Below, in pieces: positions 4,325-32,938 of a DNA stretch of 34,877 nucleotides (positions within the stretch are counted from its first letter, which is position 1; each line of letters opens with the position of its first letter). The notes beneath the pieces were generated by a model. That model did not search any database and was not told where the DNA came from. It saw nothing but the letters and a program-made list of their open reading frames with translations. Source of the DNA: Nemertoderma westbladi (taxonomy: Eukaryota > Animalia > Xenacoelomorpha). The position numbers were made by a program, and so were the translations under genes. Location of the stretch: assembly GCA_032718475.1 (NCBI GenBank), contig JAUCBJ010007815.1:1-34877 (forward strand), written 5' to 3'.

Positions 4325-4625
4325 CGGAAGCCATAAATGTTGGAAGCCATAATCTAAATTAATATCTTCAGCTAAATTGTATGGTTGAGTCATTTTGAAC
4401 GGTCTCTCCATGGAAATTAATTATTTAGCACCATACGATTAAAGTTAATTTGCACAGAAATTAGATATCTGGAATCCATGTACCCCATTCCATTATAGTT
4501 TTTTATTTTTTCAAGTGAATTGCGTTAATAAATGTATTTTTAATTGATTTAAACATAATTAACATTGTAAATTCATACGCTGATTCCATTCTCCCCCATA
4601 GAGCCTAAGGCATGGGAAGGGCAGC

Positions 4626-5757
4626 TGTAAAAGCTTTTGCGGATATAACAAGTAATTTTTCTCCGCAATATACCGTGTAGGTGCTTTAGCGGACATAACA
4701 AGCCATTTTCTGCCGCAATGCGCTTAATACTCTAAAAGACTGGAACTCAGATGACGAAATCTGTCAGCTGATTTACTGTAAACGTGGAACCTCTCTTTGT
4801 TCAGCTCGCTCAGCCAATCAGAGCGATTTTCATTTTATGTTGGACAAGGGCCTATGTAAAACCGCGCAATGCATTACGGTCTTTGTTTACCTTTCTGAGC
4901 GAGAGAACTGCTTGGAAATTCTTCTGTACTTCTGTGTGGAAGTTTCAGACTTTGACCTAAACATCAGAAACATCAGATGGCTTTGATTACAAGAACGTAA
5001 AACTATTAACGCAACGCAGCACACCGCATCACACCGCAAGTCAACATTGCTGCACAGCACATGGAACACTGCATAAGCAACACATACTGACTGTTCACCG
5101 CATTATTTGCTTCTGATATTAATTGGTGTTATGTTAATGTATATTGCTGATATATTTGGAGAATACCGATGAATAATCATAAAACCCCACAATCTTTTTG
5201 ATTACTGAAGGTTAGAGGAACAGGTTTACCGGTAGCAACTGCGACTTACATTATAGTGGTTTTTTTTGTGTGAATTAAATGCTATTTCATAATCCCTACA
5301 TGTGTCAGTTGCGATCCTCCTTATATATGATCAAATTCAGTGATGGTCGGCAGATCAGTGTGAAGTAGTGTGAAGCCGTGTGAAGTAGTGTGAAGGTTAA
5401 TAAGGCATCTCCTAAAGAATGCGCTTTTTACGAAACTCAGTAGCCATCCAGTTGTGATTAGTATAAGTCATAACTCTGTTTTATACTTAAAGCGCCACGG
5501 CCTAAAGGAACTGTTAATATTTCCCCGAAAGTAAATATATTGTCAGAGATTATATATTAACGATCAATCGAATAATACAGTAGGTCTACACTGCAATCAC
5601 TATCAAAGCATCCGAATCCAGTCTCCCTTAACTGTGGGTGAATGGTCGCGCACAGGCTGGCTTCGGCTGATGTAACTTCAGTACATTAAATAATTGATAT
5701 ACAAAAAGACAATTAAAATTGGCAGGTTAAACTGCTAAAGGTCTAAAAGCGCGAACA
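4626..5757 (+). repeat. 5' LTR of element A (1132 bp)
   Basis: Direct repeat of 15168-16391 with about 11 substitutions by eye plus indels; TGT..ACA termini; CCAAT box at 4814-4818. Confidence 0.95.
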
Positions 5758-5769
5758 TTAATAGTTTTA
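5758..5769 (+). other. PBS-position sequence of element A, complementary to its own LTR (4998-5009); no tRNA PBS
   Basis: TTAATAGTTTTA directly follows the LTR terminal ACA and is the exact reverse complement of TAAAACTATTAA at 4998-5009. No TGG start. Confidence 0.75.
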
Positions 5770-7261
5770 AACTCTTGATTGCACGTAGGCAATAAATTCG
5801 AATGTACCGGTCGGACGGTAAACTGTAGGCCTAAATACCTAACCACCCGAACCGGTACTTACCAGTACCCAGTATTATTTCGATTGAGATATATTGTATA
5901 TTGTAGGCTGTTAGGGGATTAGGGATTGATCACCCCTTATTCCTTTGTATGGTTTACTTATTTCTGTCAGTTTTATTTATCTGTAAGTGTGATATTGAGC
6001 AGAAGGCGTGTAAGCCTGCTCAAATTGTACAAATAATTTGTAGGCTGGATTGTTGTCTGGCTGTTGTTAAGTCTGAAGCGATTGCAGTGTGTGTAGAGTG
6101 TATGTCCGATAAAGTACTAGTTAGGAAGGTGGGGGCATCCAGTGTTGTAAGGTAAATCCCCCCCCCCCCCCCCCGAAAGAATAAGTCGTACTACTCGGTT
6201 AGAACGCCTACTAACTAACCATTTCGGAGTCTGCATATACTGTAGTTTATTTAGGCTTGCCAATAGTCTGCCAGCATTTGGTCTGTATTTTGTTTGTGTA
6301 GTCTGCACGGGTAGCGTAATATTTAATATTCGCAACCTACATAACTCCCCAAGTTTATTCCTACAGTAATTGTGCTTGTTACACATACCGTTATAGTTAA
6401 ATTAACCCCGGTACTACATCAGGGCTGCTTGGCGTAGGTAAAGACTGGTGCCTTTATGCTCTAGTCACTCCAGCAGATACCGTGGTTCTTTTAGCTGTAC
6501 AAGTATATTTAACTGCTGGTTATTTGTTGTATAAGTATTTGTACCTAATCTAGGGTTTAGTGTACAGTACTTTCCGAAGGTAATTGGTGTGTAGGCAGTA
6601 TATTTGTGTTGTAAAGTGGTTAATAGGCACGTTAGCTCTGGTTGGCTGCGGTAATTAACTTCTAGGTAAGGACACTCCGGGTACATAACGTAGTACTTAT
6701 AGAGCTGTAGAGCTAAAGACTATAAGTCATCAGACGGTGGTATTTTCTTATCTGGACAACGCAATTTATTTACTACTGCTTAATTATTTTCAAATACCGT
6801 AGTTTCCTGTCCGTTTGTAATAACCAGAAATTCTAACTCCTTGTTAGGCTGGTTTGTAGATTTCCTGCAAAATTACCCTAAAATTTGTACGTGTAACTTT
6901 TGTGTTTATTTAGAGATTGTAATCTCTCACAGTAATTGTATGTAATTTGTAGTAATAAGTAACTTAGTAAAGTAGAATTATTTGTTTTAGTGTCTAACAA
7001 GTAGCACTCCACTGAGAGTGTTCAGCTTCTGTGTAGTGACTCCTTACCAGAAATAATAACATTTATTTCAAACATTGACAAAAACCCTTGTACGGGTATA
7101 TAATATATTATAAATCAACTCAAACCGATTTATAAAATAGTAGGCCTGTTATACATCAATTAGGTCTTAATATCGGTTGGACTACTGCTTAATAACAGTA
7201 ATAAAGTAAAGGAAAGTAACCCTAAAATTCAGAAATTCAGTTATTCTAAAATAATTGACAT

Positions 7262-7653: not shown

Positions 7654-10600
7654 ATGGCTGACACAAAGCAAACTCTGTCAGATAGTCTCCTAGAAAGAAC
7701 AGTCTGCGACTCAGACAGGAGTGCAGAACATCTGAGACCGAAGTCCAAGTCCCCTCCTACTGTAAGAAAGGTCATCCCTTCAAGTCAAGCGGGACCAAGA
7801 GGCAGCTGTTAAACAGCAGCAACACCCGAACCGAGAACTTATTTCCCAGCGGCCCGATAGCTCCAGTAGTTCAGATACTGTAAAGTTGACACCCGAGATC
7901 GGAGCAAAGATGGCAGAAGCGGTTTATTCGGATCCACTTCGCATTCTTCCTGAAGCTGTACTCACTAGGGTATTGATTGCGGTGGAGGAACATCAAATCG
8001 ATTGGGCGAGAAGTAAGCGATCGACCAAGGACAGTTATGCGGGATACACAATAGAGGAACTGAAGTCTATTGTCGAGACGCAATGGAACTTCCCCGGACC
8101 CGGACTCCCGTTTAACTTATCGGAAGCTGCCTGGGAGGACTTATACCAGATGGGAGTGGTAAAGGACACTAGAGATCCAGCTGTGTGGAAGAGGTCGGCA
8201 GCAGGATATGTACAGGGATTCTTCAGCTCTTTGGAGCGACTAGAGGAACACCTGTTTCAACAACTCCAAGGACCTCAAGAGCAGGGAGAGGTGCTTTATC
8301 AAGTTCGAGAACGAATCTTAAGGATCAGACTAATCCTTTTGGCCTTTGAGGAAGCCTCAAAGAGAAGTCAAGATACGTCGTTGCAAGTTGCCGTAAAGAC
8401 TTGGTACCAACGAGTGAGTCTTAAAGTCCAAGGAACGACCCAATGGAAAATTCAGCTAACTGAGCGCGCGACCCATGGAGAATCAACAGACGCTACCTTT
8501 TCTTAGGTGGAAAGCGAAGTTACATCAGATAAACCTCAGAAGAAAGACGCTATTGACATCTATCTGTCGGACTATCAACGATTTATAGGTAACAAAGAGT
8601 TAAGGAGAAGGCTAGCTGGACTTCCCCCTAATAGTGAGGGAGCCAAATTTGTGTTAGACTCCTTAGATGCCGAAATGTTAGCCGCCAATCGAGCTAAATT
8701 TGAGGAAAGAATCCGCATCGTTAGAGTCCAAGAAGAGCAGCTAAAGAAAAAAAACAAATTAAAGACAGAAAGGCAGCAACAGCGGCAGCGGCAGAAGCGA
8801 AAAGAAAAGCGGCAGTGGCAGAGGTAGAAAGAAAAGCGGCAGAGGCAGAAAGAAAAGCGGCAGCTGCAGAAGCGGAAAGAACTGCGGCAGAGGCAGTGGT
8901 AGAAGCAGAACGGAAGGCATCTGAAGAGACAACCCAACTAGTGTTGGAAAATCTTCAAGAGAGGCAAGACTACTTAAATAAACAGATAACAGCTAGTCAG
9001 ATGCAGATGATAAGTCGATCTACTCCGAAGAGACAGGGATTTACAGCATCTGATGAAGGCGATACAACAGATCCTGAAGGCGGAGGAAATAGATCTCGTT
9101 CCAGCAGACGTAGAAGAACACCCCACCGTCAGAAATTGCCTAATTTGCCCCCAGCTGTGAGAAGGCAACTAGCTAGTGTAGACTTAGGTAGTACAGAACC
9201 CACAAACCAAATTATTAGAGTAGAAAGACTCCCTACTATAGTAGATGAGCCTGAAATAATTGGGCCTGTTCTCGAAGCCACCCCTTCTGTGATAGAGACC
9301 CCTGTACTTCCAGAACCTAACTCTAAATTCCCTTTGCACAGTACTAAACTACCTGTGCCCAGTAGAATAGTCCCTGAATTCCCCCCGGTCCTGGACGCCG
9401 AGCAAGACATCAACGATTTGTCGCCCGTCATCCCTCGTCTGCCCGCTACTATGTTGGCGGCTCCCGCTTCGGCGGTAGAGTGGGTGGATGAGCGACGGCG
9501 GGGGATGGATCTCCTGCTTGGACAAAAGGAGGAACATCGGGCACGTTCCTCCCAACAGGTCCGGGAGTTGGAAGGGACTGTTCAGCAGTTAAAGGGAACA
9601 GTATGAGAGGGTAGGTTAGAACTGCAAGAAGTGCAGCAGAGTATCGTGTTAGAACGCGATAAATTAGTAAATATACAAAGGGGTATACCACCACCCCCTG
9701 TAACAATGTGTCAACCTGTTAGGTCTGAAGTATTTCATGCGCAAGGTGTGGAGCCTACATGCATCTATACTGCTAGTGAAGTAGAAACTCCTATAGTAAA
9801 CCCTATTAAGGATAATTATAAACCTGTTGATAATGATATTCCATATAGACCTGATCCTAATCCGAGAAATTTATTTACCGATAACTCGATATTAAATAAT
9901 ATGATGGCCCAAGAAAGTTTTACGAGTCAAATGGCTAGAACCGAAGCCCGTCAAGCGGTAAAGGTGGGAGAGATCGTCAAGTTCAATGGAGATGAGATGA
10001 AATGGTTACCTTTTAATGAATATTATAAAGATAACATACAGAACTCTGTACTATCTAACGGAGAGAAACTTAGATTCCTCATCGAGTGCTTGGAAGGACC
10101 TCCCAAGTTAATGGCGTTATAGTTTATTGGACATCCAGATGGATTAAGACAAGTTTGGGATACACTAAACATGAGGTATGGTAATAGGACTAACATAGCT
10201 AGGTATTTGTATGCGAAATTAATGGCGCCCCAAAAGTTCCTTAGCAGCGGGATTATAGAGTTTTCCGACGAGATTCAGGAGATCTGTAGACAGTTAGACT
10301 GGTTGGGTAAGTCTCATGAATACCAGAATTCTATGGTTGTAGGAGCCCTAGCATCAGCTTTGCCAAAGGGTAGAGTAGGTACTCGCTGGGACAAAAAGGT
10401 TCTCTATTTGATGGACCAACAACATAGAGATCCAACCATGACGGACCTTCTGTCATTCTTAAACCGAGAGGTAAGATTACAACTCCTAAAACAGTCTATT
10501 GAGAAGACTGCTGAAAGTGAGGTAAGTGAAAAACCTGTTTCTAGGAGAAAGGTAACACCAGTGTGTTATACAGACGACGGCGAAAGCCAAACCTCCCACG

Positions 10601-12156
10601 AGGAGAACAGCGGGAAAGACACCGAAAGATCTTATTATGTCAACAAAACTCGGAAAGACGTAAGTAAATCTAAGTCTCGAACCAGTGACAGGAGAGAACA
10701 GGTAACAACAATTCCTCCAACGTCTCCTAAGAGAATGCATGGAAGAAAGCCCGAGGAAAGAACAAGTGTGCACCACACAGCACAGGTTAAAGTAAGTAAC
10801 ATCAAACCCAAATGTGCATTGTGCGATGGGCCCCATCGCTTAAGTGGGTGTGATGAATTCTTGAAGAAATCCCTTAAGGATAGACGTGATGTCATGTGGG
10901 ATAAGCGGTTGTGTTATAATTGCCTCAGGCGAGGACACCAACGGCGGACCGGTTACTCAGATGCTAGGTGTGCTAAGTGCGGCGCGAAACATCATATCTT
11001 GCTGCACACAGAATTTGAAAGAACCCGCACGAGTCATGTAAGTGAGCCCGAACTACATGTCCAATTCAGTGATGTGAACGACACTGACCACAGCTCTGAG
11101 ATGGAAGGATTTTACATGGACGAATTCTCCGACGAAAACGAATCCTGTTATATGATAAACACCGCAGTGTATCGAGCGCTTACGTATGAGACTGACACCG
11201 ATAATGAAGCGCAACAGACTATTCCGGACCGGCAACCATCTTGGAAAGCGCCAACTTCCAACGTCGGAATCCGGGAATTCCCAGTGGTGCAGCTGAGAGT
11301 CCATGGGTTAGGTAAGAGTTTTATAGTAAACGCCCTCCTTGACTCCGGCAGCACAGGAACATTCATCGACAAAGAACTAGCCGAAGACATCTTTGCTGGA
11401 CAACCCAAGTTCCGAACTAAGTTGAACCTTTCAGGAATTATGCAGTTTTGGATATCCACAGTAGCTGCAGACTACTATGTAGGCGCATTGTCCACCCCCC
11501 AGGATGAACTAGGAGAACATAGCATAAGGTCAGTAAAATTGGTGGCGATAAAGAACTTTGCTACCAGCCAAGTGGAACCTTATAACTGGGATGAAGATCA
11601 TTTTACCCAGCAGCATGATATCCCTAGATTCAACACCGACTACCCAGGGGTACAAATATTGATCGGCCAAAATGCGCATGAGGCGCTAGAGACATTAGAA
11701 AAACGGCCTGCTCGACCGCAACCATTACAAACATATGCTGGAAGAACGAGAGTAGATTGGTACTTCACTGGACCTTCCCGTAGAACACTGATGGAAAGGC
11801 TCCCTCGAGAAAGGGTACATCAGGTGAGCGAATGGGAAGAAGAAATCAGTGAGGGAGAAACCACAACTGAGGGAACACCATACTCCTCAGATAACGACGA
11901 TATTAACCAGCCATACGATGAGGAAAATACAATTGATCTCCTCGCCGAAAGCCGGACTTGGTGTTTCCATCATCACTATTCCAGGACGAAGAAGAAACCT
12001 GGAATTGTATTCGAAACACAACAACTCAATCGCCCAGTTGGTCGTTTATGTTTACTGGAAAGAGACCGAGAACTGTCCAGAGACTGTGGAAGGCAAGATA
12101 CTCTTCCCACGACCACCTCCCTAATCCAACAAACATCTAGGGACTCCCCAACGTAA
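7654..12156 (+). pseudogene. gag-pro: Disrupted BEL/Pao gag-protease polyprotein of element A with Pol C-terminal tail
   Basis: ATG at 7654 (MADTKQTLSDSLLE, matching MSDTKQNLSDSLLD in B). DUF1759-like Gag (KFNGDEMKWLPF..LSNGEKLRFLIECLEG), triple zinc knuckle (CALCDGPH / CYNCLRRGH / CAKCGAKHHILLH), aspartic protease ALLDSGS, tail RPVGRLCLLE. Lesions relative to B: ~60-bp deletion near 7780, stops at 8504-8506, 9604-9606 and 10120-10122, frameshift near 8755. Confidence 0.9.
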
Positions 12157-13673: not shown

Positions 13674-15089
13674 ATGACTGAGTTGATAGAAGATGATCTT
13701 GGTATCAGGGAGCGATATACCCTACCATGGCAAGCGTTTGTTGATAGTTTAATACGCGGCGACACTAGTCACCCACTACGGAGGACGATGGCCGTTATAT
13801 CGAAACGCCAATGTTAAAGGAACAGCTCACGCTTGAACTGGACTATAGAAAATTCACCGCTCACTATACGCATCGTAATGGTACGCATATGGACTTCTTA
13901 ACTACTGGTCATCCTATCGATTTACACGATACGCACGATGTAGACACCGAAAGGGAAATGGTTCTATTTAAATATCATACCCAGTGGAGTCGGAACGATA
14001 AACTGAGAATCGAACACGAAAATTCTATTCGAAACCAACTCGAAAGAGAAGACGTTGAAGAGCCGGATAAACGCAGTGACTTCAACGAATATCTGGAATT
14101 CTTGAGAGAAACATATCTCAATATTGCCAGTCAACAAAATCTAGATACTCGATATCCTCAAGCTATACATCATGACCCTATGATAGAACTCAAACGGCTC
14201 TATTTCACTATGATGTACCTTACTGCCAATCGGGCCTCCTCACTCCCTAGTAAGACCTCAGACTCTTGATCCTAATAGTATGACGGATCCTCCCGAGCTT
14301 ACTCACTGTTCAAAGATCTAGTGTTACCCGAACAATTAGTCGGTGGCACTCCGGTTGTGGGCTCCCGAGATATTCGCCCATCCTACCTAGCCGGATTGGG
14401 ACGCGGATATTTAATATCGCCGTTCAACCCGTATAATCGTCCCGGTTTAACCCCCGATACAACCCGTCACCGAGGTGGAGGAGAGCGTTGTACGAAACGC
14501 GTTAGACACTATTCGACAAAGATCGGAAAAGGAACCTACGATTGTTTAGAGAACGTAAATTGCAGCAGCAAGTCCAAGCGGTAAACAAATTAGCTTTATC
14601 TCAGTTTGATCGGGAAATCCAGAATCTCTAAGAAGATATCGAACTTGGATGACCCTACTCTCTGCAAGAGTTTTGGACGCATGCTTCCAACGACAAGCGG
14701 AGGAAAATCAGCTCGAGGAGAAGTATATCGATTCCGATAGAGCCCGAGAATGCGAGTTGGAAAGAACCATCAAACCGAGGAAATTTCTCACTACACACGG
14801 TCTACCTACTGCTCTCGTGCAAACAACCCGTCCGGGACCAGTAAGAGCTGCTGTCTTAAAACGCGCTCTCAAGGTTGTTCAACCTCGTTCCACTGAGGTT
14901 GATACCGATCAACCGGGTACCTCGACCGGCGGATACACCGACCGTAACCCTAAACCTTCTGATGCAATTGTATTGCACCCTTCACCTAGGAGTTATAGCC
15001 CTCCTAGTAAAGTGGCTCGCCCCAAAGAGAAAAGGACTCTTGCTAGCCTCAAAAAACTGCGTAAACGCCGTTCACGTAAGAAGGACTAA
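13674..15089 (+). pseudogene. Decayed ORF2 of element A, unknown function, in the env-like position
   Basis: ATG at 13674 (MTELIEDDLGIRERYTL). Pieces 13811-14269, 14321-14584 and 14649-15089 end in the basic tail KKLRKRRSRKKD. A homologous, differently broken copy is in B. Confidence 0.6.
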
Positions 15090-15159: not shown

Positions 15160-15167
15160 GGGAGCGG
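15160..15167 (+). other. Short polypurine-tract-like sequence, element A
   Basis: GGGAGCGG abuts the TGT of the 3' LTR; identical in B (29302-29309) although the adjacent LTR sequence differs. Confidence 0.7.
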
Positions 15168-16391
15168 TGTAAAAGCTTTTGCGGATATAACAAGTCATTT
15201 TTCTCCGCAATATACCGTGTAGGTGTTTTAGCGGACATAACAAGCCATTTTCTCCGCAATGTACCGTGTAGGTGCTTTAGCGGACATAACAAGCCATTTT
15301 CTGCCGCAATGCGCTTAATACTCTAAAAGACTGGAACTCAGATGACGAAATCTGTCAGCTGATTTACTGTAAATGTGGAACCTCTCTTTGTTCAGCTCGC
15401 TCAGCCAATCAGAGCGATTTTCATTTTATGTTGGACAAGGGCCTATGTAAAACCGTGCAATGCATTACGGTCTTTGTTTACCTTTCTGAGCGAGAGAACT
15501 GCTTGGAAATTCTTCTGTACTTCTGTGTGGAAGTTTCAGACTTTGACCTAAACATCAGAAACATCAGATGGCTTTGATTACAAGAACGTAGCATTAACGC
15601 AACACATTAACGTTAATTACATTAACATAAACATTAATTAGCACATTAACGCAACGCAGCACACCGCATCACACCGCAAGTCAACATTGCTGCACATGGA
15701 ACACTGCATAAGCAACACATACTGACTGTTCACCGCATTATTTGCTTCTGTTATTAATTGGTGTTATGTTAATGTATATTGCTGATATATTTGGAGAATA
15801 CCGATGAATAATCATAAAACCCCACAATCTTCTTGATTACTGAAGGTTAGAGGAACAGGTTTACCGGTAGCAACTGCGACTTTCATTATAGTGGTTTTTT
15901 TGTGTGAATTAAATGCTATTTCATAATCCCTACATGTGTCAGTTGCGATCCTCCTTATATATGATCAAATTCAGTGACGGTCGGCAGATCATTGTGAAGT
16001 AGTGTGAAGCCGTGTGAAGTAGTGTGAAGGTTAATAAAGCATCTCCTAAAGAATGCGCTTTTTACGAAACTCAGTAGCCATCCAGTTGTGATTAGTATAA
16101 GTCATAACTCTGTTTTATACTTAAAGCGCCACGTCCTAAAGGAACTGTTAATATTTCCCCGAAAGTAAATATATTGTCAGAGATTATATATTAACGATCA
16201 ATCGAATAATACAGTAGGTCTACACTGCAATCACTATCAAAGCATCCGAATCCAGTCTCCCTTAACTGTGGGTGAATGGTCGCGCACAGGCTGGCTTCGG
16301 CTGATGTAACTTCAGTAGATTAAATAATTGATATACAAAAAGACAATTAAAATTGGCAGGTTAAACTGCTAAAGGTCTAAAAGCGCGAACA
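15168..16391 (+). repeat. 3' LTR of element A (1224 bp)
   Basis: Matches 4626-5757. Has one extra ~49-bp U3 repeat unit and a 54-bp CATTAAC-rich patch (15591-15644). Confidence 0.95.
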
Positions 16392-16480
16392 GCGGCCGTG
16401 CGTAATAATATTTCTTAAAGTTGTACATTATATGGCAAGCTAAAGTTATTGACCAAGCCAGTGCCTAGGCTAGCACACAA

Positions 16481-17340
16481 GGAAGTAGTATTTTGTGCTT
16501 TACAGTTTTTAGTCTTACACTAGTAGGTTTAATTATAAAGGGCATATATCCTTTAACTGACATACCGGTACTGACATACCGATCAAACTCATGGAATCAC
16601 TGCTGACTGATGATACATGCTGACTGCTGAAACATTGCAAACTCATAACAATCAGTGTTTTCATTGTTGTTTTATACTGCTATTTACCGTCAGTTCTTCA
16701 TAATATGGTTGACGAATAATTATATTTGGAATAACGATAAATAACCCCGAAACCCAATATTCTTGATATACCGAAGGTAAGAGAGAAGGGTTACAGATAA
16801 ACGATTGTGACTTATGTTAAAGTGGTTTGAAGTGAATCTAATGTTATTTGATAGACCCTACATGAGTCAGTCTGTGTTCCTTTTATATGTGACTAAAATC
16901 AGTGAAGATTGGCAGATTAGTGTGCAGTATTGTGCAGCATTGTGTATGAGTGAGTCTGTTAAAGAAGCAATTCCTAAAGAATGCGCCATATATGTGAATT
17001 ATAATTAAGCCATATCGTTGTGAGTAGTTTAAGTCATAACTCTGTTTATATAGATAAAGCGCCACGTCCTAAAGGAACTGTTAATATTCCCGAAGGTGAA
17101 TAATATTGTCAGAGATTATATAATACTGTCAGTCGAATAATACATTAGGCTTACATAGCAATAAAATTAAACCGTCGAACCCAATCTCCCGGGAATATCC
17201 AGCGGGTGAATGGTCGCGCACGGATTGGTTTCGACTAGTGTAGTGAATCAAATACTTGTCATAGACTAAAAACTGATTTAATATCTAGAAGACATCTTAA
17301 TTTGGTGGGTTAAACTGCCAAAAGTCTGAAAGCGCGAACA
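16481..17340 (+). repeat. 5' LTR of element B, lacking the first ~405 bp
   Basis: Nearly identical to the 3' LTR (about 2 substitutions seen); ends GCGCGAACA. Confidence 0.93.
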
Positions 17341-17352
17341 TTAAAGGATATA
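17341..17352 (+). other. PBS-position sequence of element B, complementary to its own LTR (16545-16556); no tRNA PBS
   Basis: TTAAAGGATATA is the exact reverse complement of TATATCCTTTAA at 16545-16556 (also at 29776-29787). Confidence 0.75.
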
Positions 17353-17663
17353 GCTTCTTTATTGCAGTAAGCAATAAAGTTGAAAGTACCGGTCAACCGG
17401 TACATCTGTAGGTCAGTAGGCCCAACTGCCAGAACCGGTACCAGTAGGCCTGACTACCTAACCACCCGGACCGGTACCTACAGCAGTACAGGTACAGCAG
17501 TATTATTCGATTTTGATTATTATATACCAGTAGGCCTTAATAATTAATCAGGGACTGCAGCCCTGGTTTTTTATTGAGATTTTTACTTATTTCTGTCAAG
17601 TTTTATTTGTTTGTAGGCCAGTATTGAACAGAAGGCGTGTAAACCTGATCAGATTGTACAGAC

Positions 17664-18230: not shown

Positions 18231-20734
18231 TTATTCAGAGTTTATGCGATTATTCGCAACATTCAAGTCCCCAAGTTTGTTCCTACAGTAATTGTGTTTG
18301 TTATACATACCGCTATAGTTAAATTAACCTCGGTACTACACGGGCTGCTTGGCGTAGGTAAAGACTGGTGATTTTGTGCATCGGTCACTCCAGCAGATGC
18401 CGTGGTTCTTTTAGCTGTTCAAGTATATTTAATTACTGATTATCTGTTGTACAAGTACTCGTACCTAATTTAGGGTTTAGTGTACAGTGCTTTCCGAGAA
18501 TAATTAGTGTAGGCATTATATTTGTGTTGTAAAGTGGTTGATAGGCACATTCGATTAGCTCTATTAACTTCTAGGTAGGAACACTCCGTGATACATAACG
18601 TAGAACCTATAGCGATACGGCTATAGGTCGTCAGGCGGTGGTATTTTCCTATCTAGACAACGCAGTGTATTTACTACTACTTATTATTTCAAATACCGTA
18701 GTACCCTGTCCGTTGTAATAATCAGTTTTCTAACCCTTTGTTAGGCTGGTTTGTAGACTTCTTGTAAAATTACCCTAAAAATTCGTATTTTGTGTTTTTT
18801 GTAAATTTTTGCATTTATTTAGAGATTGTAATCTCACCCGAATTGTACGTAATTTGTAGTATTAAGTAACTTAGGTAAATTAGAATTATTTGTTTTAGTG
18901 TCCTATACGTAACACTTCACTGAAAGCGCACCGCTTTGTGTAGTGATTACTCCCCAGAAATAATAACATTTATTTCAACATTGACAAAACCCATTAAAAC
19001 GGGTATATATATATTATAAATCAAATCTAACGATTTATAAATAGTAGGCCTACCATACAACCATTAGGTCTCAATATCAGTTGGATTACTGCTTAAATAA
19101 CGGTAATAAAGTAAGTTAAAGTAACCAAGTAACCCTAAAGTTCAGAAATTCAATTATTCCAAAATAATTGATATACCGGTATTTACGATAGGCCTATTAT
19201 CTTATTTCTATAAATCTAGGCTGAAATTATACCGGTACTTGTAATTAATTCTATTCCAGAATTATATATACTACAAACTGTAAGCTGTATACCGGTATTC
19301 CGATAGGCCTATTATATATTTATATATATTTGTGCTAAAATTATACCGGTATTCTGTGATAAACCTAGTCTGTAATAATACTTATATAGTTATATATACT
19401 ATAAGTATACCGGTATTCTAATATATTATATATATATTACGCTACACTGAGTAGCAGTAACGGTAATTAATTACTAGGCTAGCAGTTCATACTGAGTTAC
19501 TAGACTTGCTTAGACTGTAATATAGCAGTAGGCATTCAACTGTACATACCTAGTCATGTCTGATACTAAGCAGAACCTGTCAGACAGTTTATTAGATGTA
19601 ACTATCTGCAACTCAGATCGCGACGTACAACCGTCTGGTCGTAAATCCAGTTCACCTCCCACTGTGAGGAAGGTCATCCCTCCAGTAGTAATAACAGAAC
19701 CTAGGCTGGTCCAACATCGTAGGTCTATCATAGGCACTCGAGCTCAGGTCAAGCGGGACCAAAAGGCAGCGGAACAGCAACAACCCACTAGTCAAGAACT
19801 TATTCCTCAGCGGCCCAGCAGCTCCAGTAGTGAGGATACTGTAGAGCTGACACCCGAGAGCGGAGCAGAGATGACGGATGCGGTTTATACGGATCCCCTT
19901 CTCATCCTTCCTGCAGCCGTGCTCGCTGAGTTATTGATCGCGGTAGAAGAACACCAGATCGATTGGGCGAGAAGTCAACGGTCAACTAGAGATAGTCTAC
20001 GCGGGATACACTAGTGAAGAACTGAAGTCTATTGTCGAGTCGCAATGGAACTTCCCCGGACCCGGACTCCCGTTTGATTTATCAGAAGCTGCCTGGGAAG
20101 ACATACACCGGATGGGAGTAGCCAAGGAAACCATCGATCCAGCTGTATGGAAGAGGTCCGCAGCCGGATACGCACAGGGATTCTTCAGCTCTATGGAGCG
20201 AGTAGAGAGACAACTGTTTCAACAATCTCAAGGACCTCAAGAGCAGGGATCGCTGCTTTATCAAGTTAGAGAAAGAGTTCTGCGGATTAGGCTAATCTTA
20301 TCCGCCTTTGAGGAGGCTTCTAAAAGAAGACAAGACACGTCGTTGCAAGTTGCCGTAAAGACTTGGTTTCAAAGAGTGAATCTCCAGGTTCGAGGAACTG
20401 CTCAGTGGAAAGCTCAGCTAGAGGAGCGATCAACCCATGGAGAATCAACAGACGCTACTTTTTCCCAAGTGGAAAGTGAAGCGACGGCAGAGAAACCGCA
20501 TAAGAGGGATGCCATTGACATCTATCTGTCAGACTATCAGCGTTTCGTAGGTGATGAAGAGTTGCGGAGAAGACTAGATGGGCTTAGCCCTAATAGTGAA
20601 GGAGCCCAGCGTGTGTTGGATGCGATTGATGTGGATAGGTTAGCGGCGAACCAAGCTAAATTCGATGAACAACTCCGCATCGCTAGAGAAAAGGAAGAAC
20701 AAGTAAGGAAAAAACGTATAGAAGACAGAAAGAT

Positions 20735-20942
20735 AGCAGCAGTGGCAGAGGCAGAAAGAAAAGCGGCAGCGGCAGAGGCAAAAGCGGCAGCGGCAGCGGC
20801 AAAAGCGGCAGCAGTGGCGGAAGCAGAACGAAAAGCGACAGTGGCGGAAGCAGAACGAAAAGCGGCAGCGTCAGAAGCAAAAGCGGCAGCCGCAGAGGCA
20901 AAAGCGGCAGCAGTGGCGGAAGTAGAACGAAAAGCGGCTGAA
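20735..20942 (+). repeat. Coding tandem repeats specifying an Ala/Glu/Lys-rich helical segment
   Basis: Repeated AAVAEAERK / AAAAEAK units; a shorter version is in A (~8770-8920). Confidence 0.85.
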
Positions 20943-21991
20943 GAGATCATCCAACTGGAGTTGGAAAATCTTCAAGAGAAGCAAGACGACTTTAGTAAAC
21001 AGTTAGCAGCTAGTAATATGCAGATGATGAGTCGATCTACTCCCAAAAGACAAGGGTATACATCATCTGAGGAAGGCGATACCACCGACACTGAAGGCGG
21101 AAGAAATCGATCTCGCCTAAGCAGACGTAAAAGAACATTCCACCGGCAGAAATTGCCTGATTTGCCTCCAGCTGTTAGAAGGCAACTAAATAACACCAAA
21201 ATAGGTAGTACAGAACCCACAGACCAAATGATTACAATAGAAAGACTCCCTACTATAGTAGATGAGCCTGAAATAATTAGGCCTGTTCTTGAAATCACCC
21301 CTTCGGTGATAGACACACCTGTGCTCCCTGAAGCCACTTCTAAATTCCCTCTACATAGCACTAAGCTACCTGTGCCCAGTAGAACTGCCCAGGAGACAGT
21401 TCAGGTCCTGGACCCCGAGCGAAATATTCACAATTTGTCGCCCGTTGTCCCTCGTCCGCCCGCTACAACGTTGGCGACTCCCGCTTCGGCGGTCGAATGG
21501 GTGGACGAGAGACGGCGGGGGATGGATATCCTGCTCGGACAGATGCAGGAGACTGTCCAGCAGTTCAAGGGCACAGTAAGGGAAAGTAGGCTAGAGTTGC
21601 AAGAAGTGCAGCAAAGTATCGCGCTAGAACGCGATAAATTAGTAAATACTCAAAAAGGTATACCACCACCCTCTGTAACAATGTGTCAACCTGTTAGGTC
21701 TGAAGTATCGCATGCGCAAGGTGTGGAGCCTACACGCATTTATACTGCTAGCGAAGTAGAAACTCCTATAGTGAACCCTATTAAGGGTAATTATAGACCT
21801 GTTGATAATGATATTCCCTATAGACCTGATCATAATCCGAGAAATTTATATACCGATAACTCGATATTAAATAGCACGATGGCCCAAGAAAGTTTTACGC
21901 GTCAAATGGCTAGAACCGAAGCCCGGCAAGCGGTAAAGGTTGGAGAGATCGTCAAGTTCAATGGAGATGAGATGAAATGGTTACCTTTTAA

Positions 21992-23708
21992 CCCTTTCCG
22001 GCCTGAATTAATTTAATTTAGGAAAAAAAATTGGTTGGTCTTGTTAATGGGTTAATTATACACCAAATAATAATTTTCGATGAAAAAATTTTCAAAAAAT
22101 TATTTCCAATGTTGTTTTTTTTATTGTATACAAAAGTATACGTTAGGTATATGAAACATGTTCCCAATGTATACTTTTGTATACAAACCCTAGATTGTAA
22201 GTACTTACTTACATACATACATCGTATAGTAAGTATATTCTCTCTCTCTCTCTATATATATAGAATAAACAAAGCATGCAACGAGCAGGCAATTTTAATT
22301 AAAAAAATAAAAAGCTGTCAATATTGTGAAATTTGCCAAAATGCCAAAATTTTATAATTTTGTGTGTTTTCACAACACACGTTGTTTAAAAGCAACACAG
22401 TGCGACAAAAAACTTAAAATGAAGAATTATACAGTGAAGGTTTTTTTCTGTCAGTTTTGTTCAAGTTTGAAAAAAACAGTATCGACTGACTATTTTCAAT
22501 TGTTTGTATGTCTATCTGCCCTGCCTGTATACTGTGGGTGTACAACATCTACTCCCCAACGGTGGCTGAACCACATCTACTCCCAAATGGTGGCTGAAAC
22601 ACATCTACTCCCAAGGCCCAATGGTAAACATCTACTCCATATGGTGGCTACACCACATCTACTCCCCAATGGTCAACATTTACTCCATTGGTGGCTACAC
22701 CACATCTACTCATCAATGGTCAGCATCTACTCCACTATGGTGGCTGCATCACATCTACTCATCAATGGTCAGCATCTACTCCCTACTGGTGGCTGCACCA
22801 CATCTACTCATCAATGGTGGGTGCGCCAGATTTACTCCCCAATGGTGACTGCGCCACATCTACTCCCCATTAGTGGCTGCATCACATCTACTCCCAAGGC
22901 CCAATGGTGACTGCGCCACATCTACTCCCCAATAGTGGCTGCATCACATCTACTCCCAAGGCCCAATGGTCAACATATACTCCCCTATGGTGGCTACGCC
23001 ACATCTACTCCACAATGGAGGCTGTTCCACATCTACTCTCCAATGGTGACTGCACCACATCTATCCACAATGGTGGCTGCATCACCTCTACTACCCTATG
23101 GTCAACATCTACTCCCCATGGTGGCTGCGCCACATCTACACCCCAATGGTCACACATCGACTCCCCTATGGTGGCTGCACCACATCTAGGCGTACACCCC
23201 AATGGTGGATGCACCACATCACCCAAACGGTGGCTGAATCATATCTACTCCCCAACGGTGCTGCACCACATCTACTCCACAACTGTGGCTGCACCACTTC
23301 TACTCCCCAACTTTATAAACCTAACGTAGACAAATGTATACAGTGGTTTATCAATAACACTACCGGCCTACATGTACTATAAAGTTTATCCTGGAAATAT
23401 TATTATCTCATTGGACAATCCATCTTTGGAATACCCAATCAAAATTCTCAATATCGCTTTGCCAAAGCGGTTAAATAACCATCTTTCCTATACCAGGTAG
23501 TCATCATGCCAATACCTGAAAACACGGCATCTAAAATCGTTCATTGAAGCCTTCTACTACAATTATCCAATCAGAATCGGTAATTTATAAATAAAGGAAG
23601 TGTGATAGTGCCACAATTGGATGAAACCAACTATAATTAGTTAAAATTATGCAATCCGTAGTGAAATAAATTCAGTGTATACAAAAATATACAGTCGGCC
23701 GGAAAGGG
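21992..23708. mobile_element. Non-autonomous piggyBac-like DNA transposon (1717 bp)
   Basis: TTAA duplicated at 21988-21991 and 23709-23712. 12-bp TIR CCCTTTCCGGCC / GGCCGGAAAGGG. Empty site visible in A (CCTTTTAATGAA at ~10009-10020). No transposase. Confidence 0.93.
22545..23310. repeat. Degenerate minisatellite inside the piggyBac-like element
   Basis: Mixed ~28-bp (TGGTGGCTGCACCACATCTACTCCCCAA) and ~20-22-bp (TGGTCAACATCTACTCC..) units. Confidence 0.92.
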
Positions 23709-26700
23709 TTAATGAATATTACAAAGATAACATACAGAACTCTGTACTATCTAATGGAGAAAAACTTAGATACCTCATCGAGTGCTTGGAAGGATCTCCC
23801 AAGTTAATGGCATTAAAGTTTATTGGACATCCAGACGGATTAAGACAAGTTTGGGATACACTAAACATCAGGTATGGTAATAGGAATAATATCGCTGGGT
23901 ACTTGTATGCAAAGTTAGTAGCGCCCCGAAAGTTTATTAGTAGCGGAATTATCGAGTTTTCCGATGAGATCCAGGAGATCTGCAGACAATTAGATTGGCT
24001 AGGTAAGTCTCATGAGTATCAGAACACTATGGTTATTAGAGCAGTGGCTTCTACTTTACCTAAAGGTGGAGTAGGTACACGCTGGGATAAGAAAGTGTTA
24101 TATATGATGGAACAACAACGGCGAGACCCTACCATGGCTGATCTCATGTCATTCCTAGATGGAGAAGTGAAATTACAGCTCCTGAAACAGTCCAGAGAGA
24201 AGACAGCGGAAAGTAAGGTAAGTGAGAAACCCGTTTCTAGGAGAAGGGTAATACCAGTATGTTATACCGACGACGGTGAAAGCCAAACTTCTCAAGGAGA
24301 GGACAGCGGGAAAGACACTGACAGATCTTATGTCAATAAAATGCCTAAAGATCAGGTAAGTAAATCCAAGTCTCGACCCAATGACAGAAGGGAACCGGTA
24401 CAAAAAAACCCTCCTACGTCTCCTAAAAGAATTCAGGTGAGAAAGCCCGAGGAAAGAACAAGTGTGCACCACACAGCACATGTTAAAGTAAGTAACATCA
24501 AGCCCAAATGTGTGCTGTGCGACGGGCCCCACCGTTTAAATGCGTGTGATAAATTCCTGAGGAAATCACTAAAGGATAGACGTGAAGTCATGTGGGATAA
24601 GCGGTTGTGTTATAATTGCCTCAGACGAGGACACCAACGGCGAACCTGTAACTCCGACGCAAGGTGTGCAAAGTGCGGCGCAAAACATCATATCTTGTTG
24701 CACACGGAATTCGAACGAAACAGCCCGAGTCAGGTAAGTGAGTCCGAACTACATGTCCAATTCAGTGATATGAACGACACTGATCAATCTGAGATGGAAG
24801 GATTCTATACGGACGAGTTCTCCGACCAAAACGAATCCTGTTACCTAATAAACACCACCGCAGTGTATCGAGCACTCGTGTATGAGAAAGACACAGACAG
24901 CGACCTTACCTTAACTACTTCCGATCAACAACCATCTTGGAAAGCGTCAACTTCCAATATAGGAATCCGAGAATTTCCTGTAGTCCAGTTACGGGTCCAC
25001 GGACCTCAGAAGAGCTATATAGTGAACGCCCTCCTGGACTCCGGTAGCACAGGAACATTCATCGATAGGGAACTAGCCGAAGTCATCTTTGCTGGACAAC
25101 CCAAGTTCCGAACCAAGCTAAACATGTCAGGGATCATGCAGGTTTGGAATTCTACTGTAGCTGCCGACTATTATATAGGTGAGTTGTCCACCCCACAGGA
25201 TAAACTAGGAGAATACAGTATAAGGTCAGTGAAAATGGTGGCTATAAAGAACTTCGCTACTACTCAAGCAGACCTTTATAATTGGGACGAGGATGAGAGC
25301 ATCCAACATCTTAACATACCTCGATTCCAGACTGATTATCCTGGAGTGCAAATACTCATCGGCCAAAACGCGCATGAGGCGCTGGAGACATTAGAGAAAC
25401 GACCTGCTCAACCGCAACCACTTCAGCCCTATGCGGTAAGAACTAGAGTAGGTTGGTACCTTACTGGACCTTCCCGTAGAACGCTCAGAGAAAGACTGCT
25501 TCAAGATCGCGTCTGCCAGCGGAGTAAATGGGAAGATGATACTAGTGAGGGAGACGACCCAACTGAGGGAACACCATACTCCTCAGATAATGACGATATT
25601 AGCTCCAATTTAGATCAATGGAGATATTGTCCCAAGAAGTTTAATCCAACGGACATCGCTTCCAGAGGAGTAACTCCTCAAGAACTGACAGATACTACAG
25701 ACCGGTTAGGTGAACCCGACTTCCTGAGTAAGGAGGATGAATGGCCTCCCCATCTTACTCCGACTGAGATTAGACCAGCCAAGGGAGCGGAGAAAGTTAA
25801 ACCTAAAACCCGGGCGGGTGGAGCGGAGTTATTTGAACCCGGGATAGATCTGTCGGTATTACATGTTGCCAGGGACGACGCCGTGGATCTGGGCCTCCCC
25901 TCCGCGAGTGGATCCTTCATGAAGATCAGAGAGAGCGATTGGAGCTCTGGAACATCAGACGTCTCGCAGGGACTCTCACCTCTCCTGCAGAGAGCGACGG
26001 ACCACTATAGCTCCTGGAATCGGCTTTGTGACGCCGTCATACACTTTGAGCGATGTTTCTATCGTCACTATTCCAGGACGAAGAGGAAACCTGGAATTGT
26101 ATTCAGGATGCAGCGACTCAATCACCCAGTCGGTCGTTTGTGTTTATCGGAAGGGAATGGAGGACTCTCCGGAAACTGTGGAAGGCAAGATTCTCTTCCC
26201 ACGACCACCTCCCTAATCCTTCAAACATCTAGGGACTCCATAACGTAACAACATATGGAGTGGGTGTGTGACTCTATTATTTTATATTATTTTATTATTT
26301 TTATATTTCTGTATGTATTACTATGTAATTTTATTATAATCGTTTTCTTTAATTTTATTCAGTAGAATGTTATTTTAGCGATTATTTAGTAGATTAGTGC
26401 AATATATATTCGCGTTTATTACTTAATTACATATATATTATATTTAATGCGACGGCAAGAAATAATTCTTTTTCTCTTTCCTTACTGTCCGTATTACATT
26501 ACAAATACGTAACTACAGTAAGATGAAATGTCCGTACTTATTAAAGTACAATAAAGCCACTACTATATTTAAGTATTATTGGTAGGCAGAGTATTAGGAA
26601 TGCAAAGTTCAGATCCTCGTGTCTCGGCTAAACCAAGCTCTGGGTAGACCTTGGAAACGACTTGCCTCTTCACACTGACATTGCTTCGTGCGATATTGCT

Positions 26701-27185: not shown

Positions 27186-27900
27186 AAAATTCCATTAATT
27201 AATAGATCAAGGGAGCGGAGATTTATATTATTATGCGTATGCGTGTACGAAAGTCTCCCAAACATAGTTAATAGCCGATAAAATTCTTAAAGTCATGTAT
27301 AAACAGGACATTGACTATTAAAGAATTCCTATTAAATAACATCCCAGATCTGTATGCATTGGAATTACTCTAATTCTACCGCTAGCTTTGCATAATGTCA
27401 CCATAGCAACAACCACGCTAGAATTAGAATTGAGTTAAACGAACAATAGAAAGCTTGTCCCATTGAATAACATAGGGAATAAATAGCGCACTACTAGTAT
27501 CCAAGGATACATAATAATAATACAGTGACATTCTGGAAGGCATTGACTAACGGACAAATGGCCCGAATGTGTGTAGTTGTGACCAGTTGTGTGGTATTTG
27601 TGAGTTTATAGGTGAATGTTACTGCTAAAGTGTGTTTACAGTAGCTAGTCGCAATCGTAAAAGTAACCTAACTCTCCAAGGAAAACCTGAAGTACATCTA
27701 AGTCTTTGGGACGGACAGTCGAGTGACTTGTGTCGGTTGTCGTTGTCATTGTGCGGCTACGTCGTTGGCGAAAGTACAGCGGCGACGACACATCGGCGCT
27801 GAGGATCTCGTACTGTCCGGGGTTGATTGGGGTAGGCAGCGACGCCCGCTCGCCTAAATATAAACTCATTATAATATGGATAAACTCATATATAGCAGAT

Positions 27901-29231: not shown

Positions 29232-30352
29232 CTGTTTAGAGTATCTTTATGTTTTAGAAACTGTGATTTTTATATTTTATAGACTGAAAATCCCATTTTC
29301 TGGGAGCGGTGTAAAGGCCTTTGCTGAATTGCCCCGTTATTTTTATTATCTTTTACATTAAAATACTCTGTAGTTGATTTAATAAGTGTAAGAGACCGTA
29401 TTATTGCTGTATCGGTGTTTTTAGAGGATCTAAGACCTATTTCCTCCGTATGTGTACTGTGAAAGGCATATTTTATGATTCTATGGCAATTCGTGACGCA
29501 AAGGGGTGATAGCTACTCTTGAACAGTAGTTACTATGACTACGGTTAACAGCTGACATTCATACGTGTTGATTTCCTTTGTTCTACGGCGTCTCTCAGTT
29601 CAGTCAGCCAATTAGAGCGTTTTTGTGGCTCCTTGTACAGAAAATTTCCGAGAAATGACGCAATGCCTATGTGCAGTGTTTACATTCAGTCCTGAGCCAA
29701 AGAAAGAACGGCTTGGAAGTATTTTGTGCTTTACAGTTTTTAGTCTTACACTAGTAGGTTTAATTATAAAGGGCATATATCCTTTAACTGACATACCGGT
29801 ACTAACATACCGATCAAACTCATGGAATCACTGCTGACTGATGATACATGCTGACTGCTGAAACATTGCAAACTCATAACAATCAGTGTTTTCATTGTTG
29901 TTTTATACTGCTATTTACCGTCAGTTCTTCATAATATGGTTGACGAATAATTATATTTGGAATAACGATAAATAACCCCGAAACCCAATATTCTTGATAT
30001 ACCGAAGGTAAGAGAGAAGGGTTACAGATAAACGATTGTGACTTATGTTAAAGTGGTTTGAAGTGAATCTAATGTTATTTGATAGACCCTACATGAGTCA
30101 GTCTGTGTTCCTTTTATATGTGACTAAAATCAGTGAAGATTGGCAGATTAGTGTGCAGTATTGTGCAGCATTGTGTATGAGTGAGTCTGTTAAAGAAGCA
30201 ATTCCTAAAGAATGCGCCATATATGTGAATTATAATTAAGCCATATCGTTGTGAGTAGTTTAAGTCATAACTCTGTTTATATAGATAAAGCGCCACGTCC
30301 TAAAGGAACTGTTAATATTCCCGAAGGTGAATAATATTGTCAGAGATTATAT

Positions 30353-32381
30353 GGGTCGTTCTCACAAAAAGTGGCCAAACTTTTATGTCAAAATGTCCAT
30401 GCATTCGCACGGTTATATTTCCAAACGACACAGATTTAACCCCATGAACCTATATACCAATCGGAAGAGCGGAAATCTGCTCATATTTCAGCAAATTTTC
30501 AACAGATTCCATTCACAACCTAGAGAATGACACCATTTCAAATATCGAAAATGCATGTTTTTTGAAATGTCACATTGAATTATTTTGAAATATTTGGCTT
30601 CTGAGCTAAAGCAATGAAAGCAAAGGTTCCACATACCATACATCAAAATAAAGCAAATTTAATGCTCTTTCACATACTATTGGTGGTTTTCAACCGAAGC
30701 TACTCACATTTTATATATTTACTATTTACTAACAATTAATTACGCCGTCACTAGGATTTTGTCCACCATGTAACGCTCGTTTTTATGACATGGTTTTTTT
30801 ATATTTATTCACAACATCTCCAAGTGAGATATTTCTAAACGGCGATTTATTTAGCTATCAGCAGGTAAAAAAATTATAAGAATTCGTTCATTAGAACTCG
30901 AGTGTTGTGCGAAAACGTAAATCTACATAAAATACCGTCATTAGGAATGTCCTCAATGTAACGCTACTTTGAATAGCGATAACTTTTGCTTTACTAATCA
31001 TATCGACACCATTGAGGGCTCATATGAAAGAGCAATCGCAGATCTATCGAATCACATATTTGATTTTAATATAGTTTTAAAACAGACTATAGTCAACGCC
31101 ATGCTAATGAAAAATGTCTTCAATGTCCATCATGTAACGCATGTAACGCTGTCACAATCAATAGCGTTACACTTGAGACATGTCCATCATGTAACGTAGT
31201 TGGGCCTGAACATACCTAGCAGTACGAGTGGCGTTTCTTTTTACAAATTAGGCAGTCAGGGTCAAATTAACAATAGTCGATGGTTTCTGGTTTTCAGTAT
31301 TTAGTATAAACTACTGTAGTAGTAATATTATCTGTTGTAGTCTGTATTACCTAGTACCTAAAGGGTTTAGGAAAAGCTCATGAGTTTGTTTACCTTCTTT
31401 ATTTCGGTTCTAAAACAGTACTTCTTAATTGTCATGCAATTACAATTGTCAAACGGAATTAAGCGTGTTTTGTCCGGTAAGAACTTCTCGATTGAATTTA
31501 TAGTGATGGCGTTACACGTGAAGGACTTAGAGATTAAGTTAGTGATGGCGTTACACGTGAAGGACTTAGAGATTAAGTTAGTGATGGGATGGCGTTACAC
31601 GTGAAGGACATAGAGATTAAGTTAGTGATGGGATGGCGTTACACGTGAAGGACTTAGAGATTAAGTTAGTGATGGCGTTACACGTGAAGAAGGACTTAGT
31701 TACACGTGAAGGACTTAGAGATTACGTTAGTGATGGGATGGCGTTACACGTGGAGGACTTAGTTACACGTGAAGGACTTAGAGATTACGTTAGTGATGGG
31801 ATGGCGTTACACGTGAAGGACTTAGAGATTGCGTTAGTGATGGTTTTAAGGATTCCGTTAACTATTTTGTACAATTAGTGTTACAATAGTATGTATATTC
31901 ATATTGTATGGATACAATAATACAAACTAAATAATTTGCTGATTTGAAAAATATTATTTTCAGCCATTGGGTTGATAAATAAATCCGTAAAAAACCCGTA
32001 TAAATATAAAATAAATCCGTACATGACATTAAAGTGACTGTTGAATTTCTGGTATATATTTTAAATGTCAAATCCTGGATACTGATTGGCTAACAAGTAG
32101 CGTTACATTCGAGACAACGAGTTAGATTGTGGGCGTTTTGTGAAATGAAGGTTGCTGATTGGCTAACAAGTAGCGTTACACCAGGGACAAAATGTTACAT
32201 TGTGGACATTAATTTTTCGCGAATAAAACCTTACGACTTTACTAAAAAAAACGGCCCACTAGTGTATTCGAAATCGCCTCATCGAGAGCTCTCGAAATAT
32301 GTATATATTTATATGGTTTTGACAAAAAAAAATTTGACAATTTTTTCTCAAAATTTTGGCCACTTTTTGTGAGAACAACCC
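30353..32381. mobile_element. Non-autonomous TIR DNA transposon (2029 bp), possibly Sola-like
   Basis: 27-bp TIR GGGTCGTTCTCACAAAAAGTGGCCAAA / TTTGGCCACTTTTTGTGAGAACAACCC (1 mismatch). ATAT duplicated (30349-30352, 32382-32385). Empty site in the 5' LTR at ~17117-17120. Superfamily uncertain. Confidence 0.9.
31501..31843. repeat. 39-44-bp minisatellite inside the TIR element
   Basis: Units of TAGTGATGG(GATGG)CGTTACACGTGAAGGACTTAGAGATTAAGT with partial internal duplications. Confidence 0.93.
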
Positions 32382-32604
32382 ATATAATACTGTCAGTCGA
32401 ATAATACATTAGGCTTACATAGCAATAAAATTAAACCGTCGAACCCAATCTCCCGGGAATATCCAGCGGGTGAATGGTCGCGCACGGATTGGTTTCGACT
32501 AGTGTAGTGAATCAAATACTTGTCATAGACTAAAAACTGATTTAATATCTAGAAGACATCTTAATTTGGTGGGTTAAACTGCCAAAAGTCTGAAAGTGCG
32601 AACA

Positions 32605-32938
32605 CGTTGTGTTTAGTATAAGTCATAACTCTGTTTTATATACTTAAAAGCGCCACGTCCTAAAGGAACTGTTAATATTTCCCCGAAAGTGAATAATATT
32701 GTCAGAAATTATATAGTAACGATCAATCGAATAATACAGTAGGTCTGCACCGCAATAACTTTCAAAGCACCCGAATCCAGTCTCCCTTAACAGTGGGTGA
32801 ATGATCGCGCATAGGACTGGCTTCGGCTAATGTTACTTCATGTGCATTAAATAATTGTTATAGGCTAAAGTCGATTTGTAAACAAGAGGACAACTAAAAT
32901 TGGCAGGTTAAACTGCTAAAGGTCTGAAAGCGCGAACA
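32605..32938 (+). repeat. 3' portion of a third LTR of the same family (A-like)
   Basis: Aligns to 5451-5757 with moderate divergence and ends GCGCGAACA. It is followed by LINE sequence rather than an internal leader. Confidence 0.88.

Follow-up and report, generated by a model that had tools for sequence, protein, structure and literature searches.

Candidate self-priming from the element's own LTR transcript in a lineage of BEL/Pao retrotransposons

Introduction

Priming of minus-strand DNA synthesis by the element's own transcript has been described in parts of the Ty3/gypsy superfamily and predicted in one plant lineage of Ty1/copia, whereas the Belpaoviridae (BEL/Pao elements) are defined as tRNA-primed. 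In the available text of the relevant papers, Ty3/gypsy self-priming is described for Tf1 and Tf2 of Schizosaccharomyces pombe, Tj1 of S. japonicus and Tcn1, with an RNase H cut between bases 11 and 12 in Tf1 (PMC7175516, PMC4600332). In the plant TAR lineage (Houba, Osr-1), according to the part of the source that was accessible, the prediction takes as its sign a complement of 10 bp or more that begins 0–5 bp beyond the 5' LTR (PMC6317226). The ICTV profile of the Belpaoviridae gives an 18-nt primer site complementary to tRNA-Arg or tRNA-Gly and describes replication as poorly understood (PMC8742986). Self-priming is not assigned to BEL/Pao in the accessible part of PMC3601003, and a term search of the main text of two BEL/Pao surveys, as far as that text was available, found no mention of the primer site (PMC3118150, PMC554778).

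The original prediction made for the DNA studied here held that self-priming was not known for the Belpaoviridae. This agrees with the ICTV profile and with the freely accessible literature that we searched, where we found no published report of self-priming or of splice-built primers in BEL/Pao.

Results

Two BEL/Pao elements in tandem

The window, that is, the whole stretch of DNA analysed (34,877 nt of contig JAUCBJ010007815.1 of Nemertoderma westbladi), contains two related LTR elements in tandem, A and B, with internal parts about 80% alike. Their main parts are:

4626..5757, plus strand: 5' LTR of element A, 1132 bp, with TG...CA ends
5758..5769, plus strand: primer binding site position of A, with no TGG, adjoining the LTR end without a gap
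7766..12156, plus strand: gag-protease region of A, with DUF1759, three Cys/His knuckles and an aspartyl protease, interrupted by stops and a frame change
15160..15167, plus strand: polypurine tract of A, abutting the 3' LTR of A
15168..16391, plus strand: 3' LTR of A, in which short repeats inserted at about 15591-15644 take the place of part of the 12-mer described below
16487..17340, plus strand: 5' LTR of element B, truncated at its 5' side
17341..17352, plus strand: primer binding site position of B, with no TGG; a contig of a second organism also crosses this junction
19532..26248, plus strand: gag-protease region of B, with a remnant of the BEL/Pao RNase H-integrase tether, split by an insertion of about 1.7 kb
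29310..32604, plus strand: 3' LTR of B, with an intact 12-mer (29776-29787), an Inr-like motif (29686-29691) and a DNA transposon inside

The 5-bp flanks of A (4621-4625 and 16392-16396) match at four of five positions. DUF1759 scores above the Pfam cut-off in the Gag of both elements, the three Cys/His knuckles and the protease motif could be aligned, and database relatives of their proteins carry Peptidase_A17 (a Pao domain) and DUF1759. Neither reverse transcriptase nor RNase H nor integrase was found in A or B, the tether remnant being confined to B. Judged by their sequence, A and B are non-autonomous BEL/Pao LTR retrotransposons: they have flanking LTRs, a polypurine tract before the 3' LTR and a Gag and protease of BEL/Pao type, and a Ty3/gypsy polyprotein does not fit, since the relatives of their Gag-protease are BEL/Pao. 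Database searches returned no protein closer to those of A and B than about 30–45% local identity, so that an autonomous helper was not seen. Protein queries of viral contigs gave no relatives, and the LTR-end pattern had 0 matches in metagenome and viral contigs.

Several other sequences accompany these elements. In both, Gag is extended at its N-terminal side by a long stretch (7766-9606 and 19532-22016) that includes a repeat rich in Ala, Glu, Arg and Lys, has no confident match in Pfam and is preceded by a leader of about 2 kb. Broken extra frames common to A and B lie ahead of the 3' LTRs (13769-15089 and 27727-29361); they have no Pfam match and are a possible remnant of an accessory gene. 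The insertion within gag of B (21992-23708) carries a tandem array of 28-nt units, and the 3' LTR of B houses a non-autonomous DNA transposon (30353-32381) with 49-nt inverted ends, a 4-bp ATAT duplication and an internal tandem array. A piece of a third, A-like LTR, its downstream part only (32606-32938), adjoins the 3' LTR of B, and a broken non-LTR retrotransposon with an RVT_1 match occupies 32912-34540. On the minus strand, 358-1356 holds two frames (358-822 and 1030-1356), which we take to resemble the remnant of a THAP-domain transposase; 358-822 has no Pfam match.

Each primer site is complementary to the LTR of its own element

The segments involved in the pairing between primer site and LTR are:

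4998..5009, plus strand: predicted 3' end of the self-primer of A, 12 nt, exact complement of 5758-5769
4990..4994, plus strand: extension pairing in A, with 5773-5777 past a 3x3 loop
16545..16556, plus strand: predicted 3' end of the self-primer of B, 12 nt, at whose last base a duplication with a 14-nt period begins
16535..16540, plus strand: extension pairing in B, with 17357-17362, plus two G-U pairs
5773..5796, plus strand: leader hairpin region of A, which holds AATAAA (5791) and competes with the extension pairing
17357..17379, plus strand: leader hairpin of B, 9 bp, which hides AATAAA (17373)

As originally predicted, neither 5' LTR is followed by a TGG-type tRNA primer binding site; the 12 nt past each LTR are the exact reverse complement of a segment of the element's own LTR (5758-5769 of 4998-5009 in A, 17341-17352 of 16545-16556 in B), and both duplexes stop exactly at the LTR boundary. 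The proposed extensions were also found, together with the local hairpin that competes with the one in B. The 12-mers of A and B differ at 4 of 12 positions (3, 5, 7 and 8), all of them compensated by Watson-Crick pairs. Past a mismatch of 2–3 nt the pairing resumes, with 5 bp in A and with two G-U pairs and 6 bp in B, adding one further compensated change. The claim that the 12-mers occupy homologous LTR positions stood in part: they lie in each other's best ungapped 20-mer match (13/20; tied for best or second at 13, 25 and 30 nt), but are out of register in both global alignments of the LTRs, by MAFFT and pairwise.

The longest complement to the own LTR, counted from the boundary, is 12 nt in each element, unique at 4998 in A and at 16545 in the 5' LTR of B, with another occurrence at 29776 in the 3' LTR of B. 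Because the two 12-mers are rich in A and T, have a common ancestry and both end in the palindrome TTAA, a chance match of AT-rich sequence, or a copy templated at the DNA level in a common ancestor, might be suspected. Chance is opposed by the four compensated changes and by the frequency of such matches: 12 nt was reached in 9 of 20,000 dinucleotide shuffles of the LTR, for A and for B each, and by none of the 224 other TTAA starts in the window; among other start points in the window, 4 of 29,974 reached 12 nt for A and 7 of 29,974 for B. The crossed pairings are short (5 nt for the site of A with the LTR of B, 4 nt for the site of B with the LTR of A). The extended duplexes have energies of -22.0 (A) and -24.0 (B) kcal/mol with the own LTR versus -10.5 and -5.7 when crossed, the bare 12-mer duplexes being weak (-8.8 kcal/mol in A, -11.6 in B). 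Long-range folding gave pair probabilities from 0.00 to 0.99 depending on the boundaries chosen. The value was 0.00 when B was folded from its predicted start, and also in most unspliced models that reached 200 nt beyond the site; given this dependence, we do not count the folding as support for self-priming.

The 3' LTR of B keeps all 12 nt of the primer, and that of A has no intact 12-mer, its insertion leaving 6 complementary nt. This insertion (15591-15644) consists of short iterated local repeats placed exactly at the primer and could be a repair scar or a slip during strand transfer. AATAAA is conserved in A and B 32–33 nt past the LTR end, and the alternation between the hairpin beyond the primer site and the primer extension is a possible switch.

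Elements of the Cer7 type carry a tRNA-like primer gene inside the element. An element-encoded tRNA primer was rejected for A and B, as ARAGORN predicted 0 tRNA genes in the window and no Rfam match, tRNA included, exceeded its gathering score.

The primer would be an internal segment of the leader

Two further segments of the LTR of A bear on its transcript:

4809..4920, plus strand: block conserved between A and B by alignment, with a CCAAT box and a candidate core promoter; predicted start near 4887
5211..5492, plus strand: candidate intron predicted for the downstream portion of the LTR, with donor, branch-point-like motif and acceptor kept in B (16777-17059); it does not cross the primer

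The expectation of a Tf1-like transcription start, at or just upstream of the 12-mer, is probably wrong, since the compensated extension and promoter-like motifs point to a start about 100–120 nt upstream. Pairing continues to about 20 nt upstream. In B, a predicted Inr-like motif lies 100 nt before the primer end, accompanied by MTE- and DPE-like sequences spaced as expected and preceded by a CCAAT box; the predicted motifs are weaker in A. TATAAAG also occurs just ahead of the 12-mer of B, but it is not conserved in A and we do not read it as a TATA box. The primer of A and B is therefore likely, in this model of the transcript, to be an internal part of a leader of roughly 100 nt, longer than the first 11 nt used by Tf1.

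Further candidate donors occur in the leader at about 6152 (A) and 17777 (B). A splice-built primer was rejected for both elements, as complementarity across GT/GC..AG junctions always stays below 9 nt. In the LTR of B, the longest of the short-period repeats begins at the last base of the primer, which is also where the insertion in the 3' LTR of A is found; such repeats might have been left by slips at the first-strand transfer, a hint recognized only post hoc.

A very abundant family with several leader types

Evidence at the population level comes from assembled contigs, which do not link primer and site on one molecule. The host contains the A/B family in very high abundance, with 7256 contigs of run X1 matching 1451 bases of A. 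Contig depth summed over A, which is not a copy number, is low in the bins that cover the 12-mer and the stretch immediately after the site, whereas the end of the LTR has high depth; this pattern suggests that subfamilies diverge in both places, the 12-mer and the site. Of the 22 distinct joints listed, four begin at 5008-5010, where similarity to A stops. Five contigs of run X1 aligned to B carry an A-like site. A third leader type, starting with neither TGG nor TTAA and followed by the same hairpin, is represented by one contig in X1 and one in X5, a run with a second organism label and presumably of RNA; none of the LTRs in the window has a partner for it where the primer would lie. An 83-nt contig of X5 crosses the LTR/site junction of B with 2 differences. 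No TGG follows the LTR end among the 13 loose-end rows listed out of 23.

These data bear on whether own-family RNA might prime in trans, a short LTR-derived RNA of another copy, or a transcript ended near AATAAA, annealing in the manner of a tRNA. Such RNA would be abundant at so high a copy number, the AATAAA is conserved in both elements, and the fold in cis fails in several models. Yet that AATAAA lies within a hairpin, and the site of either element fits the LTR of that element and not the LTR next door, even though most leaders among the contigs appear to be of the B type; we consider priming in trans very unlikely.

Distant relatives pair across their own predicted splice junctions

An alignment scan of metagenome contigs with the Gag-protease yielded 59 loci. 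A candidate LTR pair was identified in 13 of them, among which are L005, whose pair lacks the LTR end, and L042, whose repeats are 65% alike and unreliable as a pair. In nine of these 13 (L007, L013, L018, L019, L021, L022, L034, L057 and L059, about five families) a TGG adjoins the LTR end, and their self-complement does not exceed 7 nt; L036 and L037, also among the 13, have no TGG. A motif scan of 39 loci found a TGG-type site in 15.

The LTR of L036 has a 108-nt GTAAGT...TAG intron (1616-1723), and the site at 1882-1893 is complementary to 12 nt that span the resulting junction, versus 7 nt in the unspliced sequence; a TATA-like motif would give a primer of about 110 nt after splicing. Two more cases, L038 and L001, were found among 15 loci scanned for splice junctions. 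The site of L038 (354-370) pairs over 17 nt across the junction of a 107-nt LTR intron (133-239), and that of L001 (340-350) over 11 nt across the junction of a 151-nt LTR intron (102-252), the LTR end of L001 being placed by inference on a contig with no second LTR. In eight of the 15 loci (L010, L016, L024, L025, L026, L032, L042 and L055), hits of at least 11 nt away from identified LTR ends were taken as background. L001 is the top scorer against the Gag-protease profile of the window, and unbroken frames encode a polyprotein of 2078 aa in L036 and span 2036 aa in L038; Pao RNase H and integrase domains are present in all three loci. All three introns are of the GTAAGT...TAG type, and in each exactly 7 nt of the primer lie on the downstream exon. 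None of the control k-mers matched the strict junction sets (0/6378, 0/6043 and 0/5273 for L036, L038 and L001), and 6/6378 matched a loose set for L036. Four of the 12 positions compared are different in L036 and L038, each with its compensating change. In L035, a non-TGG post-LTR sequence close to that of L038 occupies 78-95, most of the LTR lying beyond the contig.

In L036, L038 and L001, the site and the LTR of the same element are complementary at the level of LTR RNA and only across a splice junction. Since the complement of a splice junction can be read only from RNA, the partner in these loci is the element's own transcript. A copy made at the DNA level cannot produce such a complement; together with the evidence against chance given above, this leaves the reading of the pairing as coincidence or inherited DNA copy extremely improbable and already nearly refuted. 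The pairing of three distant BEL/Pao families across their own LTR splice junctions, and its lack in the TGG relatives, support the self-priming originally proposed for A and B.

Across the five families (A, B, L036/L037, L038 and L001), the matrix of sites against primers is diagonal, with 12, 12, 12, 17 and 11 Watson-Crick pairs counted from the boundary and at most 4 off the diagonal. There is no G-U wobble among these 64 pairs, and all five families have a C as the base after the primer and a helix that stops exactly where the LTR does. These properties matter for the idea that the pairing is a selected regulatory RNA helix (a packaging, translation or polyadenylation switch) and that something else, such as a tRNA half, is the primer. 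The competition between the extension and the leader hairpin hiding AATAAA is indeed switch-like; the exact end at the LTR boundary and the absence of wobble argue against a merely regulatory role, as do the at least six different post-LTR sequences, each of which would need another primer. We regard this explanation as quite unlikely.

In a tree of the Gag-protease, based on about 290 columns at 25–30% identity and with long branches, A and B group with L001 and L035-39, apart from seven TGG elements. The split has support of 98/94 with 22 rows, 100/99 with 16 rows (after removal of long and duplicate ones) and 99/99 with 13 rows (L035, L036 and L038 taken out as well). L027, L040 and P0001, which have no primer-type call, fall on the A/B side as well.

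Discussion

Our analyses make it likely that A and B prime minus-strand DNA synthesis in cis with their own transcript and not with a tRNA, a reading that rests on sequence comparison. In both elements, as in the Tf1 type, the post-LTR site is complementary to the element's own LTR RNA over at least 10 nt. Transcription would start about 100–120 nt upstream of the 12-mer, as predicted from motifs, and the 12-mer would then fold onto the site just past the LTR, aided by the extension of 5–8 bp. The cut after the last paired base would be made by a nuclease, for which Tf1 suggests the RNase H of a reverse transcriptase supplied by a putative autonomous helper; it would leave a 3' end, from which reverse transcriptase would extend into U5. 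Finally, plus-strand synthesis would read about 12 nt of the primer while it is still attached and so write them back into the site.

Copy-back of the primer into its site during plus-strand synthesis is established for the tRNA primers of retroviruses, and a study of the Tf1 self-primer reportedly concluded that the primer is not removed. Copy-back would explain how the pairing stays perfect while its letters drift freely; exact pairing that ends at the LTR boundary, combined with such drift, is what it would be expected to produce. More broadly, we give an even chance to the proposal that a whole branch of the Belpaoviridae gave up tRNA and uses its own capped leader of about 100 nt, cut internally at the boundary duplex. 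In many members splicing would assemble the last 12–17 bases of this primer, A and B would have them ready-made, and copy-back would rewrite the site in each cycle.

If this holds true, tRNA-free priming would occur in each of the three LTR superfamilies, and one of the lineages using it would be an animal lineage of high copy number. The primer would be internal and, in the relatives, built by splicing, tying replication to host splicing. Such elements would probably lie beyond the reach of silencing by tRNA fragments aimed at primer sites, and self-priming would account for BEL/Pao elements in which annotation finds no primer site.

A and B resemble canonical Belpaoviridae (Semotivirus) in the length of their LTRs (about 1.2 kb), the polypurine tract, a Gag that carries DUF1759 and Cys/His knuckles, the protease and the tether motif, and the flanks of A, matching at 4/5, correspond to the 5-bp target duplication of Semotivirus. 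They differ in that both lack reverse transcriptase, RNase H and integrase, as well as the 18-nt tRNA site, which has its counterpart in the TGG-type site of the TGG relatives. As far as the available descriptions go, A and B share with Tf1/Tf2, Tj1 and the Tf1/sushi and Tcn1 groups a site that complements the element's own LTR RNA, the absence of a tRNA and a duplex of about 11–12 nt. They also have the complement of at least 10 bp, 0–5 bp past the LTR, by which the TAR lineage was recognized in the accessible part of its description, although TAR elements are copia elements of plants with unrelated proteins. Unlike Tf1, A and B belong to another superfamily by their BEL/Pao Gag and protease and have LTRs of 1.1–1.3 kb, a loop of about 750 nt and a cleavage that is predicted; also unlike Tf1, their relatives build the primer by splicing. 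From their sequences, A and B would thus act like the self-priming Tf1 yet stand outside the Tf1/sushi group, as BEL/Pao elements by Gag and protease that lack the tRNA site of their family.
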